The translations under genes and the position numbers were made by a program. The notes beneath the pieces are model-generated. The model was not told the origin of the DNA, ran no database searches, and saw only the letters and a list, made by a program, of their open reading frames with translations. DNA of 64,000 nucleotides from an uncultured delta proteobacterium (GTDB taxonomy: Bacteria; Desulfobacterota; Desulfobacteria; Desulfobacterales; SpSt-501): assembly GCA_963828345.1 (NCBI GenBank), contig CAWHEZ010000019.1:61568-125567 (forward strand). Reading direction: 5' to 3'. Below are positions 16,644 to 63,376 of this stretch, piece after piece. Positions within the stretch are counted from its first letter, which is position 1. Each line of letters opens with the position of its first letter.

Positions 16644-16844
16644 AAGAGGGCAGTGATTAACCGACCGTCGGCAGTTTTTTAAAATTATCGGAGCGGCGCT
16701 GAGTGTCTTCGCAACGACCTGATGATAAAATTTGTTGGCGGCGCAACCGTGCTTGGCCGTTCAGTATTATATCACAAATAAGCCACCCAGTTTGTAACTT
16801 GCATTACTGACAGCAAAACGAATAAAATTCTGGGGAGACAAAAG

Positions 16845-16950
16845 TCACAGATATCGACCGGGCGAAGGGTATATTCACAGATTACCGCCACGTCGGTAAT
16901 TTCATCCGACATATATTGAATTTCGGTAAGTTTGTGATGGTATCAATGTG
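16845..16950 (+). repeat. intergenic hairpin module, copy A (family also at 61381..61480 and, diverged, 62131..62250)
   Basis: GAAGGGTATATTCACAGATTACCGCCACGTCGGTAATTTCATCCGACATATAT... aligns with 61398-61450. Hairpin ATTACCG-N6-CGGTAAT at 16881-16900. Confidence 0.8.
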
Positions 16951-17238
16951 GTTAAACTGAGTCCTCAAAGAATTACAGGCAATCGTCATAATAGTTTATG
17001 TTTGGGCCCACCCGGCGAAGACCGGAGCGCCTATGGGGAATTTTCCAGATCAACGCCTATATGATGGATGGTGCCTGTTCCTATCTTTTCTGGGAAGGGA
17101 TATCACCCGGCCTATATGGAATTGCGGCAAGTTTGTGATAGTATCAAGGTGGTTAAACCGAGTACGCAAAGAATTGCAGGCGAACGTCACAGTGAGTGAT
17201 GCCGGGGCCTGCAGGGCGAAGACCGGAGCGAAGCGTTG
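16924..17238 (+). repeat. two ~112-bp direct repeats (16924-17035 and 17125-17238) duplicating the leader, RBS and start of the PIN-like gene
   Basis: CGGTAAGTTTGTGATGGTATCAATGTGGTTAAAC...GGCGAAGACCGGAGCG versus CGGCAAGTTTGTGATAGTATCAAGGTGGTTAAAC...GGCGAAGACCGGAGCG. About 80% identity by eye, period ~201 bp. Confidence 0.8.
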
Positions 17239-17838
17239 AGAACGAACTACGTCCTGATCGACTACGAGAACGTCCAACCTTCGGATCTTGAACTGCTTCG
17301 CGATGGGCCGTTCAAGGTCAAAGTGTTTTTAGGCGCAAATCAAGCTAAAATTCCCGTCGCTCTTGCTGCCGCCATTCAAGCGTTGGGAGCGAACGCCGAG
17401 TATGTTCTTCTCGAGTCTTCCGGCGCAAATGCGCTCGACTTCCACATCGCGTACTACATTGGCATGCTCTCCGCTTCAGAATCGTTGGCGTTCTTTCACA
17501 TCATTTCAAAAGACACAGGGTTCGACCCTCTCATAAAACATATCAGGGCTAAGGGGATATCTGTGCAGCGTTCCGCCTCCATCGCGAGCATGCCCTGTTT
17601 CAAGTCCCCCCTCCCATCGTCATCCGATGCTCACATTGAGATGGCGGTTGCCCATCTGGTCAAACTAAAGACGGCCAAGCCACGGGCCCAAAAGACTCTA
17701 TTGGGAACCTTGCATGCTCTCTTCAAGAAAGAACTCCCTGAACATCAGATTTCTTCCTTGGTCGTTTCTTTATGTAAACTGGGTATTGTCAAACTTGACG
17801 GCACCAAGGTTACCTATGACTTGCCTTCGGAGACCTGA
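17236..17838 (+). CDS. PIN/NYN-like domain protein
   Basis: TTG start after GGAGCG. MRTNYVLIDYENVQP...NALDFHIAYYIG...FHIISKDTGFDPLIKHI matches, from memory, the PIN-like family usually annotated as PIN domain-containing protein. Confidence 0.6.
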   Translation: MRTNYVLIDYENVQPSDLELLRDGPFKVKVFLGANQAKIPVALAAAIQALGANAEYVLLESSGANALDFHIAYYIGMLSASESLAFFHIISKDTGFDPLIKHIRAKGISVQRSASIASMPCFKSPLPSSSDAHIEMAVAHLVKLKTAKPRAQKTLLGTLHALFKKELPEHQISSLVVSLCKLGIVKLDGTKVTYDLPSET

Positions 17839-60785: not shown

Positions 60786-61054
60786 AAGCAATGGGTGGAC
60801 ACCCAATCCAAACCGGGTCCAAAGCACTGATGAACAAGCCGAACAAAGCGCTCTACCCGACAGAGTTAAGACTATGATATACAGAAAGTATCTGCTATGT
60901 TTTTGAATTGTTGGCGATCTTAAATAACATTCGACAGATCGCTAAAGCGCTGAATCGGTGATGTTTTTAATTTTAGGATAAACAAAATGCAAACTCACAA
61001 CGCGACTACGCTACACACGGCGAGTAAAGACTGACAATATGAAAGGAGCGGGCA

Positions 61055-61168
61055 ATGGGAGACAAGGGCGGCAAGAAAAATAAGGACAAGAGCAAGAAAC
61101 AAATTTCTAAGAAACACGAGCAGAAGGACAAAGAAGCGAAGGATAAGCAACCGAAAAAGACCTCATAG
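61055..61168 (+). CDS. 37-aa Lys-rich micro-protein (MGDKGGKKNKDKSKKQISKKHEQKDKEAKDKQPKKTS)
   Basis: AAAGGAG lies 7 nt upstream of ATG 61055. Low-complexity basic peptide. Confidence 0.4.
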   Translation: MGDKGGKKNKDKSKKQISKKHEQKDKEAKDKQPKKTS

Positions 61169-61380
61169 CAGTGTAGGAGGGGAACTTGGGCAGACTGATA
61201 ATATTATCGGTCTTGGCTAACCGGGGGGTGAACTGAATGCGGAGACGTCCGTGAGTTCCTGGATCTGGTCCTTAGCCCGCGCCAGTTACTTTTTTCGTTG
61301 AAATATCAAGGTAAACTCGACTCACCAAAAAGCTGCGTTTGTGAAAGCGTAGCGGCTAAAAATCGAGGGCGGGAAAGCTA

Positions 61381-61480
61381 AAGATACAGACCGGCCGAAG
61401 GGTATATTCACAGATCACCGCCATGCCGGTGATTTCATCCGACGTATATGCATAAGGGCTGATTTTGTGATATTTCGTGT
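61381..61480 (+). repeat. intergenic hairpin module, copy B
   Basis: CCGAAGGGTATATTCACAGATCACCGCCATGCCGGTGATTTCATCCGACGTATAT...TTTTGTGATA. Hairpin ATCACCG-N6-CGGTGAT at 61414-61433, 115 nt upstream of the HD gene start. Confidence 0.8.
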
Positions 61481-61547
61481 ACCGGGTCGTTTTTTTTAAA
61501 GCCCGTGGCAATGGTTCTCCCAATTCTGATTTAGGGGAAACTGACAG

Positions 61548-62108
61548 ATGCTTTCGCGAGATCAATCCATAGGGCTCTTATCTGAGTATGGCAAGGGAGC
61601 CGCTTGGGTCAAGCACTGTCTCGCCGTTGCAGGTTCAGCCTCCAGGCTGGGCTACGTCCTGGACAGTCGGTATCCCATTGACCAACATTATCTGTGGTCG
61701 GCGGCCTTACTTCATGACATCGGGAGGTGCGTCACGCACGATCCGGTTATGCATGGCGTCGAGGGCTACAACCTCCTGTTGAAGCTGGGCCACGAAGAGG
61801 AAGCCTTTGTCTGCGCGTCACACATTCTATTTGGCCTTGAGGCCTCCGAAGCCGTGCAGTTCGGGTTGCCGGCTCAGGATTTTATTCCGCATACCATCGA
61901 AGAGCGACTTATCCCGCTGGTCGATCTGATGATTGAAGGTGTTCAACCGACCACACTTGATCGCCGGTTCTCGTCGCTGCGTAAACGCTATTTTGAAAAC
62001 AGCTTTTTAACGGACAGACTTGATCGTGCCTATCAGACAGCAAGGTCGTTGATGATCCAACTCAGTGAGGAAATCGGAGAGTCCGTCGAAAAAGTCATCA
62101 GGGTCTGA
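61548..62108 (+). CDS. HD-domain (HDIG-like) phosphohydrolase
   Basis: AALLHDIGR (HD motif), HGVEGYNLL, ASHILFG. Confidence 0.75.
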   Translation: MLSRDQSIGLLSEYGKGAAWVKHCLAVAGSASRLGYVLDSRYPIDQHYLWSAALLHDIGRCVTHDPVMHGVEGYNLLLKLGHEEEAFVCASHILFGLEASEAVQFGLPAQDFIPHTIEERLIPLVDLMIEGVQPTTLDRRFSSLRKRYFENSFLTDRLDRAYQTARSLMIQLSEEIGESVEKVIRV

Positions 62109-62130
62109 ACGAAAAATTAAGGCTGGCAAA

Positions 62131-62250
62131 GGTTACAGATATAGATCAACGCTGGGGCCTATTTACAACTGACCGTTGTGCCGGTGCTTACATTCGACAT
62201 ATCTGTACTTTTACGATTTTGGCGATACCATTTAATTTTTTAAGGATAAT
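62131..62250 (+). repeat. intergenic hairpin module, diverged copy C
   Basis: AAAGGTTACAGATAT...TATTTACAACTGACCGTTGTGCCGGTGCTTACATTCGACATATCT...TTTTGGCGATACCAT aligns with copy A at roughly 60%. ACCG-N6-CGGT core retained at 62172-62185. Confidence 0.55.
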
Positions 62251-62252
62251 TA

Positions 62253-62522
62253 ATGGCTAACGGAAAATCTTCAAAACTGTGGACTGTCAATGTAATATCC
62301 TTTATCCTCTTTGTTATTTTGTGCAGTACAGGTTTGATAAATTGGCTTGTATTGCCCAGAGGATATGAGGCTCGTGGTAATTTTTTGGTTTCTTTAAGAC
62401 ATTTTTTTATTGCTATTCATGAATGGGCTGGACTGATATTCATAGTTTTGATCGCAATACATATTGTCTTGCATTGGCCCTATATAAAATCCAATTTAAA
62501 GAAATATGGTATCATGAAATAG
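62253..62522 (+). CDS. DUF4405-like small membrane protein (two conserved His in TM helices)
   Basis: Three hydrophobic segments. AIHEWAGLIFIVLIAIHIVLHW. Confidence 0.5.
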   Translation: MANGKSSKLWTVNVISFILFVILCSTGLINWLVLPRGYEARGNFLVSLRHFFIAIHEWAGLIFIVLIAIHIVLHWPYIKSNLKKYGIMK

Positions 62523-63376
62523 AAATTATTGTTGAGCCTAAGGCAAAAATTATTTAATAGTGATAACGTGGTTGTGATTCATATAACATCCGACAAATCA
62601 CAAAAGCACCAAAGCTGTGATATTCCATCGCTGTGGGGTCTTATATAGAAACCATATATCGTCCCTAACCAGCCACAGCAGATGGCTTAACCTATTAAAA
62701 TGAAATAATTTATTATCCCTTTAACATTGGGATGTTATGCCGCATAAATGCATGCAAGGGGTTTCATAAAGAAACCATCTAATCGTTCGTTAGATGGCCA
62801 GAGCCCGCCCTACCGCAACTCGAAGGAGGCGAGCCATCATGAAGAGAGTCATGACAGGACCATGAGCGAGGAGCTTCGCGCTGCGATCGGTGCGCTACAA
62901 GGCGGCGATGATGCGCATGCGCAGACGGCCTTCGCTGAAATTGCGGACATGGCGCGTCGCGAGCCCGGCGAATGCGCCGCCGAGCTGTCGCGCGCGCTGC
63001 GCGAGGAGCAGGCCGCCGGCGCACTGCGCACGCCGCGCCTATTGACCCTGCTCGGCTTGACGCGCGAGCCGATAACGTAACCAAACCGAATCAAAGCACA
63101 AGCCTAATTGCATCTATTTTCACTCCTCCTGTAACTTAGGGGTGGCATTCGATGCAGCGACAAACACGAGGCTACCTGCTCTCAAGTTTTTTCATAAAAA
63201 GACTGGGGCTTATGATCCGAAATGTCGCAGCAGTCTCTTTTATGATTATTTTGAGCTTTGGGCTCAGAAGGATGATTGTTGGACATTTCCCGTGAGTTTC
63301 CTGAAAGATTATTAGTATGTTCTGACAGCCAAAGCCGGCATGATATTGAAACCGGGTTCAACTCTGGACTTGGTGT

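Follow-up and report, generated by a model that had tools for sequence, protein, structure and literature searches.

Integrons are the textbook bacterial means of stockpiling and shuffling single genes, and to our knowledge the tools that detect them work only through the integron integrase IntI and the attC site. Acinetobacter plasmids carry pdif modules, whose flanking sites alternate in orientation. In the elements called SEs, the inverted repeats measure 13-19 bp and the spacer 6 bp; SEs depend on partner genes, either tfp with srap, ginC with ginD, or tnpC, and were found in Gammaproteobacteria only (PMC10214605). This study investigated a 64,000-nt stretch of contig CAWHEZ010000019.1 (hereafter the window) from an uncultured delta proteobacterium of the Desulfobacterales, in which a module of ~100 nt had been noticed between genes. 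The best-supported reading of the module is that it belongs to an element, here called type I, that separates gene cassettes in co-oriented arrays of freshwater-sediment genomes of the Desulfobacterota type. We put at roughly 0.55 the probability that the module makes up the middle of a junction or attachment-site element in an integron-like cassette array without an integron integrase. No description of the repeat or of the arrays was found in the literature.

The arrays resemble integrons, among them the sedentary chromosomal ones, and integrase-less attC clusters (CALINs) in that co-oriented units of ~0.4-1.3 kb hold unrelated accessory genes, a homologous, imperfectly palindromic site with covarying inner stem pairs stands between the units, segments reassort at a fixed point in that site, and other mobile elements home to the sites. 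They differ from integrons in sequence, layout, and enzymes. The RYYYAAC...GTTRRRY boxes are absent here, and the 75 aligned copies contain no conserved AAC...GTT; when the copies were read for attC boxes, GTTAAAC was found only after copies A and A' (Table 1). The crossover box (ATCCGAC or TGACAGC) stands beside the hairpin and not inside it, and the junction measures up to 168 nt, with two cores and a conserved core of 115 nt. The adjacent recombinases are Xer-like, scoring 169 and 114 bits against an integron-integrase cut-off of 265, and the arrays lie at several places in a genome, with no fixed integrase/attI head seen. A canonical integron was rejected for want of attC boxes and of IntI. 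The repeat-based arrays work like integrons, yet they carry neither of the two marks, attC and IntI, by which membership is decided.

The Xer/dif and pdif systems offer a further comparison. The 3' hairpin of the element is a 29-30-bp site with two 11-bp inverted arms and a 7-8-bp centre and is dif-sized. In contrast to pdif modules, all sites here point one way, the breaks fall at the box beside the hairpin and not at its centre, and the sequence is unlike dif.

Anatomy of the repeat

A repeat search of the window assigned three copies to one family (16841-16938; 61374-61471, 79% identical; 62129-62226, 61%). The pattern ACCG-N6-CGGTRNTTNCATYCGAC matched three times, always on the plus strand, against 0.07 matches expected, and three matches were reached in none of 100 shuffled sequences. 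Both results agree with the first-pass annotation, which had described three co-oriented copies of the ~100-nt module. The module is a real repeat, but it constitutes only the centre of a longer non-coding element (TATCAC...GTGAT) of 166-170 nt, a length uniform in 32 distinct copies, and two more partial copies, in which a CATYCGAC box and a GTGAT arm are equally spaced, stand at 60928 and 62587. In a flank alignment, conservation reached ~125 nt upstream of TATTCACA, a box named in that annotation. A 220-position profile (nhmmer) aligned 16751-16961, 61292-61495, and 62038-62251 with E values of 1e-49, 1e-53, and 4e-34, respectively; the part of the third alignment before ~62112 overlaps the end of a gene with an HD domain and is doubtful.

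From 5' to 3', the element comprises a 5' hairpin (TATCACAG, ~20 nt, CTGTGATA), the sequence TGACAGC, a core of ~115 nt (AAAGCGGGTAAAAATCGAGGGCGGCAAAAGCTACAGATATCGACCGGCCGAAGGGTATATTCACAGAT), a variable stretch of 16-17 nt that ends in GGTGATTT and contains the hairpin first described, the CATCCGAC box, and a 3' hairpin (ATATCACNA, ~12 nt, TNGTGATAT). TGACAGC lies 3' of the 5' hairpin, ATCCGAC (within CATCCGAC) lies 5' of the 3' hairpin, and the two 7-nt cores follow one layout on opposite strands, namely TTTY + 7-nt core + N-TATCAC...GTGATA. The ends of the element are inverted over up to 14 bp (ATATCACAGGAAAC / GTTTCCTGTGATAT in locus L039), and TA is invariant at both outer edges of every copy; it may represent a duplication or simply belong to the repeat. 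Copies in several genomes share 75-87% identity. A coding role was considered for a minus-strand open reading frame (ORF) running through the core (...SDEITGMAVICEYTLRPV...) and was rejected; the start codon is ATG in copy A but ACG in copy B, the variable stretch spans 21-24 nt, and 1-nt indels among the copies break the frame, so the element is not coding.

The commonest recurring part is not the module first described but a ~40-nt unit, CATCCGAC-N21/22-TGTGATA. Upstream of this unit, and joined to it at one point, stands a type I core, a type II core, or the end of an element with an IS91 transposase and an integrase.

Co-oriented arrays and break points at the boxes

Approximately 150 related loci (designated by L numbers) were fetched after pattern scans, mostly from deltaproteobacterial genome bins and from wetland and sediment contigs. 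The profile yielded 238 full or partial matches in 137 of these loci, and in 68 of the 68 loci with more than one copy all matches lay on a single strand. Of the strict unit CATYCGA-N21-24-TGNGATA, the fetched loci held 108 occurrences on the strand of the element and none on the other. The units were spaced by a median of 1151 nt (mostly 425-1340 nt); of the next ORFs, 119 of 155 were co-oriented, and of the previous ORFs, 69 of 84. Matches to 62 Pfam families were obtained for 102 downstream proteins, including methyltransferases, many DUFs, cyclases, TIR, PIN7, SnoaL, and others. An integron array consists of co-oriented cassettes of roughly 0.5-1 kb that hold unrelated cargo between sites, and the loci fit this description; such same-strand spacing combined with diverse cargo is the look of a gene-cassette array.

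Break points were located by comparing pairs of contigs that were at least 93% identical. Five pairs were shared up to TTTCATCC(GAC) and differed from there on (L039/L117, L103/L133, L085/L138, L070/L116, and L117/L126). Four pairs (L082/L088, L039/L117, L039/L139, and L066/L075) were shared from CATCCGAC on but not before it, the break falling between -3 and +2 of the box, and in L048/L090 the break fell 5 nt before TGACAGC. In L039/L117 and L039/L139, one and the same downstream leader stood behind a type II core in one contig and behind a type I core in the other, and in L082/L088, too, a shared leader followed the module in one contig but an unrelated module in the other. The module thus has no fixed link to the gene that it precedes. 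The copies of the window behaved alike when metagenome contigs were aligned to them: around copy B the contigs break before 61374 and directly behind 61443/61447 (at least five runs behind 61443), around copy D metagenome and metatranscriptome contigs break directly before 62587/62588 in five runs, and one soil contig passes from a B-like core to a D-like hairpin and on into the sequence that follows D. Gain or loss of a cassette between near-identical contigs was also sought; the sole indel (L048/L098, 1009 nt) was flanked by TAAG and not by the boxes, and this candidate was discarded.

The boxes are also occupied by elements that encode recombinases. Phage_integrase was the commonest Pfam family among the other large ORFs (12 of 132), and IS91 transposase domains were encountered three to four times. 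In L103, L070, L133, and L060, a 2.1-kb element that encodes two overlapping tyrosine recombinase genes (360 aa + 292 aa) lies inside the box; the first recombinase of this family has 360/367 aa, and the copy of L103 extends over 295-2440. The element ends in a 15-bp inverted TGTACGTAATAAAAC...GTTTTATTACGTACA. With slashes marking the junctions, the four loci read ...TTTCATCCGACC/TGTACGTAATAAAAC...GTTTTATTACGTACAG/ATCCGAC..., and junctions also read ...TTTCATCCGACC/TGTACG...CGTACAG/ATCCGACCTATCAC...; ATCCGAC(C) flanks both sides of the element in L103 and L070. The four insertions are independent because their upstream cores differ. In seven further loci (L118, L033, L072, L112, L119, L094, and L031), the two-recombinase element stands inverted in the TGACAGC box. 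In unrelated contigs retrieved through the 292-aa protein (L161 and L163-L165), GCTGTCA, which is the reverse complement of TGACAGC, lies on both sides and is followed by a GTATC...GTGATA hairpin. Tyrosine-recombinase elements are located at a fixed short core with that core on both flanks, as at an attachment site. In L029, L033, L121, and L072, elements with an IS91-type transposase and an integrase end in ...GCGGTTTCGTAC at a distance of 2-3 nt from the box.

The recombinases are Xer-like (XerC/XerD-like by profile). Those of L029 and L031 scored 169.5 and 114.3 bits against TIGR02249 (cut-off 265) and matched it in two stretches, which indicates that the IntI-specific insert is missing. 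The 292-aa family had at least 8000 matches at E<=1e-20, with contigs of ~1-4 kb accounting for most of the 120 best; its sources include Geobacteraceae, Desulfobacterales, and Chloroflexi bins. No description of this abundant, insertion-sequence-sized two-recombinase family was found in the literature. Among described elements, the 2.1-kb inserted element is nearest to SEs, GInts, Tn554, and the recombinase-in-trio elements, without their extra genes (PMC10214605, PMC5385486). The inserted element, and not the module, is like SEs in its pair of tyrosine recombinase genes, which overlap in an operon, in its short and imperfect inverted ends, and in the short spacer between these ends that defines its site, but it has two genes only and 7 identical bases on both flanks, and it occurs in Desulfobacterota, Geobacteraceae, and Chloroflexi bins.

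Two side observations concern these insertions. Different lineages of the 2.1-kb element (L103, L070, L133, and L161-L165) carry different 7-mers, ATCCGAC and GCTGTCA. In the type I copy at ~383 of L115, which has the sequence ...GGTGCTTTCGTACATCATCCGATG..., six additional bases (GTACAT) stand exactly before the box; these bases resemble the tip of the IS91/integrase element end and may be an excision footprint.

The anatomy, the co-orientation, the cassette-sized spacing with diverse cargo, the break points at the boxes, the precise insertions with identical 7-nt flanks, and the covariation in the inner 3' hairpin (described below) point to a cassette array. In such an array, DNA segments would be cut and rejoined at the two 7-nt cores by Xer-like tyrosine recombinases, and the candidate enzymes would be the 360-aa + 292-aa pair on the 2.1-kb mini-element that sits in the cores. 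Downstream cassettes, each comprising hairpin, leader, and gene, would reassort with upstream modules, and new units would pile up head to tail in one orientation, in the manner of an integron, without IntI or attC. We infer that the recombinases would catalyze this exchange in trans, that the hairpins would fold in single-stranded DNA, and that the 115-nt core would have a role beyond carrying the sites.

Several points weigh against the cassette array. No recombinase gene of this kind is encoded in the 64-kb window. In its own site, which has the layout TTACGTACAG + 7 nt + CTGTACGTAA, the recombinase element has arms (TTACGTACAG) unlike those beside the box (GGTGATTTC / ATATCAC), so the action of the recombinases in trans on the array sites is only inferred, and for the recombinase element the repeat may be no more than a safe landing pad. 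The break points come from metagenome assemblies, in which repeats can make chimeric joins; the recurrence of the breaks at one 8-nt box across many samples argues against such joins. The assembled contigs yielded no circular cassette, no excision junction, and no clean presence or absence of a box-bounded cassette. The ORF calls were crude, comprising the longest ORFs only. Finally, the full element is constant in length, has inverted ends, and carries TA at either outer edge, features that also fit a miniature inverted-repeat transposable element (MITE).

The distribution of the family was assessed by pattern scans of several collections. A stem-free pattern detected 36 loci in the species-genome collection, ~16 of which belonged to the family, the remainder being chance matches; the family loci came nearly all from four bins named 'uncultured delta proteobacterium' of one soil/sediment survey. 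A second pattern, set upstream of the hairpin to avoid biasing the stem, retrieved at least 120 metagenome contigs. Phage and plasmid origins were rejected, as the scan of viral contigs produced four chance matches only and neither the element nor the two-recombinase element matched any plasmid. Full type I elements were also seen on bins labelled Methanomicrobiales (L014, 52.8-kb contig), Thermoplasmata (L021, 3.9-kb contig), and Hyphomicrobiales (L010), which are three short or possibly mis-binned contigs; the Methanomicrobiales bin derives from the same sample as two deltaproteobacterial bins. Their occurrence is either mis-binning or spread past the lineage.

Copies in the window and their hairpins

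Five units with a CATYCGAC box lie on the plus strand of the window and none on the minus strand (Table 1). Over 60.9-62.8 kb the order is E, small ORFs, B, the HD gene, C, the DUF4405 gene, and D, and the G+C content varies from 0.32 to 0.64 between adjacent units over 61-63 kb. The upstream core of copy E (ACAGAAAGTATCTGCTATGTTTTTGAATTGTTGG...) matches the type II cores of L039, L029, L023, and L028 (ACGGAACTAATCTGCAATAATTTTAGATTGTTGG...). Copy C fills the space between the stop of the HD gene (62108) and the start of the DUF4405 gene (62253), and its 3' part, TGTACTTTTACGATTTTGGCGAT, is found again at position 5300 of L045. The HD and DUF4405 pair is also present on a 2.5-kb JGI contig. A conserved leader of ~160 nt (CGCTGTGGGGTCTTATATAGAAACCATATATCG...) follows copy D as far as 62787; positions 62587-62787 are 81.6% identical to positions 2249-2449 of L029, and this homology is non-coding and begins exactly at the box. 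The stretch of D plus leader precedes a 519-aa ORF in L029 and occurs also in a soil contig, and after the leader the window holds an ORF (62748-63080, 64% G+C) with no family match.

Table 1. Copies of the repeat in the window and the genes lying between them (plus strand, window coordinates)
Feature	Position	Strand	Evidence	Parts
Copy A, full type I element	16751-16961	+	nhmmer E 1.8e-49, model 6-216	outer arm TATCACAAA 16770-16778; TGACAGC 16808-16814; hairpin first described ATTACCG 16881-16887 / CGGTAAT 16894-16900; CATCCGAC 16903-16910; 3' arm TGTGAT 16933-16938
Copy A', 3'-hairpin part (ATATCACC...TTTGTGATAG)	17100-17159	+	nhmmer model 154-213, E 1e-4	no CATCCGAC box
Copy E, type II junction	60881-60966	+	box-plus-arm regular expression	box CATTCGAC 60928-60935; arm GGTGAT 60958-60963
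Copy B, full type I element (the copy named in the first-pass annotation)	61292-61495	+	nhmmer E 1.9e-53	outer arm ATATCAAGG ~61303; degenerate TGACAGC (TGTGAAAGC) 61340-61348; hairpin first described ATCACCG 61414-61420 / CGGTGAT 61427-61433; CATCCGAC 61436-61443; 3' arm TGTGATAT 61466-61473
HD-domain gene, cassette-like cargo between B and C	61548-62108	+	Pfam HD 3.4e-8	
Copy C, diverged type I element	62112-62251	+	nhmmer E 3.6e-34; blastn 62112-62203 vs L014, L031	box CATTCGAC 62191-62198; arm GGCGAT 62221-62226
DUF4405 gene, cassette-like cargo between C and D	62253-62522	+	Pfam DUF4405 6e-11	32-36% G+C
Copy D, minimal unit	62587-62622	+		CATCCGAC 62587-62594; hairpin ATCACA 62597-62602 / TGTGAT 62616-62621

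The leader behind copy A is tandemly duplicated with a period of 201 nt (16899-17029 vs 17100-17230, 79% identity), and the second duplicate, which holds A', runs into the start of the PIN7 gene (17236-17838; Pfam PIN7 1.9e-28). Copy A had been placed upstream of this gene; it does lie upstream, but ~290 nt away and with the tandem duplication in between. Leaders of the copy A type (...TGTGATA...GATTGCAGACAATCGTC) also precede unrelated ORFs in L023 and L031. At 63323-63340, just upstream of a gene with an Lcl_C domain (63377-), TGACAGCCAAAGCCGG is similar to the opening 15 nt of the type I core (TGACAGCAAAGCGGG) and may represent a truncated further junction, in which case the array would run on beyond the end of the window.

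Summed contig depth in metagenomes from wetland, sediment, and soil reached 257-286 over 61369-61447 vs ~8 on either side, and a second hot spot covered 62575-62641. The core is also held by metatranscriptome contigs, in which the ratio of its depth to that of its neighbours equals the ratio in DNA runs; the metatranscriptomes thus give no evidence of special expression. A third hot spot lies at 61034-61168 (148, 29.5, and 41 vs <10 beside it; contig breaks at 61053-61056 and 61098-61103) and coincides with an ORF for a Lys-rich protein of 37 aa (ATG at 61055, behind AAAGGAG). It may reflect a widespread gene for a small basic protein or cross-mapping of A-rich low-complexity sequence.

The hairpins of the module exist as described in the first-pass annotation: the arms pair in copies A and B, the T>C and A>G changes being complementary, and copy C keeps ACCG-N6-CGGT. 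The proposal of a compensatory stem was borne out only in part. Some compensatory variants occur (CATTG/CGATG and AACG/CGTT), but covariation is weak; in 75 distinct aligned copies the stem was 75% paired, 33 of the 75 were unpaired at two positions, and double changes appeared in 1-5 sequences per pair. Of 65 distinct variable stretches, approximately two-thirds were able to form the stem; approximately one-third of the copies read GATGGGTGGTTTCCGGTGCTTT there, with which the stem is impossible, and in these copies the hairpin is dispensable. Covariation rose above that of shuffled alignments only at two inner pairs of the 3' hairpin (AU 22, CG 12, GU 5; AU 33, GC 11). A pairing of the arms around the box (GGTGAT...ATCACC) was examined as another candidate and rejected, being 76% paired with covariation not above shuffles. 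In the hairpin of the module, the repeated arm motif ATCAC/GTGAT would simply be present twice; such arms are probably protein-binding or strand-folding.

The module had also been proposed to hold a promoter with an operator or to form a structured leader or riboregulator, and the results gave neither proposal support. A scan for sigma-70 promoters (-35/-10 with 16-18 nt spacing, A2 and T6 in the -10) returned 5 sites vs 4.6 expected, none of them in a module, and the proposed -10 element reads TGATTT or TGCTTT in most copies, without the A at position 2. A bipartite promoter, CATCCGAC-N22-TGTGATAT, was rejected because its spacing, as read from the sequence, exceeds that of the sigma-70 type. 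An Rfam search with the module matched no family at the gathering score nor at a permissive E<=1-5, in line with the first-pass annotation, in which no known riboswitch class had been recognised. The whole element showed no excess folding stability on either strand (z -0.09 to -0.85 vs shuffled sequence), and, as described above, the module is not tied to the following gene. In one subgroup (L039 5738-5790, L014 6025-6090, L031, L023, L028, and L021), a sigma-70-like promoter, ATTTCATTTGATTTTT-N~16-TATTAT/TATATT, lies ~25 nt after the 3' hairpin, suggesting that such cassettes carry their own promoter.

Alternative explanations and meaning

The alternative that survives best is a selfish repeat of the MITE type, a possibility already raised in the first-pass annotation, the only one of the readings given there that lies near the mark, and one that we consider conceivable but doubtful. 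The element would be a 168-nt non-autonomous transposon with TATCAC...GTGATA ends whose transposase is encoded elsewhere, the recombinase and IS91 elements would exploit it as a landing pad, and the partial copies would be wreckage. Such an element is discrete and has inverted ends and many copies, as observed; the length is fixed at 166-170 nt in 32 distinct copies, the edge TA is invariant, the summed depth is ~30x that of the neighbours in DNA runs, copies of different genomes are 75-87% identical, and the 115-nt core is without evident function. This explanation keeps its weight on account of the constant length, the inverted ends, and the edge TA. MITEs, Correia elements, REPs, and BIMEs are likewise non-coding, high-copy intergenic repeats of ~170 nt with inverted ends and hairpin potential in related genomes. 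What sets the present repeat apart from them is its absolute co-orientation (68 of 68 multi-copy loci; units 108 vs 0 by strand), the presence of one copy per gene across 8-kb stretches in place of the scatter of a MITE, and its modular exchange, in which minimal units and type II cores join at exactly one box. Apart from the ambiguous TA, neither a target duplication nor an empty site was seen, and no matching transposase or parent element with matching ends (TATCACAGGAAA) was detected in the ~780 kb of fetched loci. Strict co-orientation and breaks at internal boxes exceed the behaviour of an ordinary MITE, and a MITE leaves the absolute co-orientation and the exchange at internal boxes unexplained.

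An HUH-type single-strand element, comparable to the palindromic derivatives of IS200/IS605, to REP/RAYT, or to IS91, is unlikely. A Y1 or Y2 transposase would bind the hairpins, the boxes would be nick sites, and the orientation would follow replication, which would accommodate the absolute orientation bias, the mirror arrangement of a hairpin beside a short conserved box at each end, and the covariation of the inner hairpin pairs expected of a folded single strand. IS91 elements with a Y2 transposase adjoin the box in several loci, and between 50 and 61 kb the window abounds in RAYT/IS200-like remnants that point the same way; these remnants carry a different inverted repeat, GGGACGCCCCTGTTTT. 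However, RAYT-like genes were present in 4 of 137 loci (tblastn with the RAYT fragment of the window) vs tyrosine recombinases in 12-15, and the elements that sit exactly in the cores encode tyrosine recombinases only. The ends of IS608-type elements have conserved cleavage and guide sequences outside the hairpins, whereas conservation of the present element ends at the hairpin arms and no such sequences lie outside them.

The regulatory module favoured in the first-pass annotation, namely a shared promoter or operator, structured 5' leader, or riboregulator of one regulon, is the least supported explanation and highly improbable, because its position upstream of a co-oriented next ORF (119 of 155 by crude ORF calls), the sequence-level likeness of TGTGATAT to an extended -10 (TGn + GATATT), a good TTGATT-N17/18-TATNAT promoter ~45 nt after the 3' hairpin in a subgroup, and the presence of the core in metatranscriptome contigs are opposed by the absence of an Rfam match, of excess stability, and of a promoter-like site in the modules, by a stem missing in one-third of the copies, by the free reassortment of module and downstream gene, by an RNA-to-neighbour depth ratio equal to that of DNA runs, and by 80-87% identity over >130 nt between genomes, which indicates common descent and not a short binding motif.

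For the cassette array, we tentatively propose a more specific scheme, which we hold with clearly less confidence than the array itself. Desulfobacterota-type sediment bacteria would capture genes independently of IntI, with single-gene cassettes that start with a 7-nt core and a TATCAC hairpin and with XerC/D-like pairs, borne by the 2.1-kb mini-elements, acting in trans; the 168-nt element would be a non-coding double-site adapter cassette (GCTGTCA and ATCCGAC) for two recombinase lineages. If this is true, the Methanomicrobiales and Thermoplasmata matches would hint at cross-domain traffic.

The cassette array also bears on annotation, in that conserved upstream modules such as these should not be called riboswitches or operators. 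The conserved hairpin would belong to DNA recombination and would be uninformative on the gene that follows it. If rows of non-attC cassettes with Xer-like recombinases are common in environmental bacteria, the origin of integrons from Xer-type systems would become testable, and much gene capture would so far have gone unseen.

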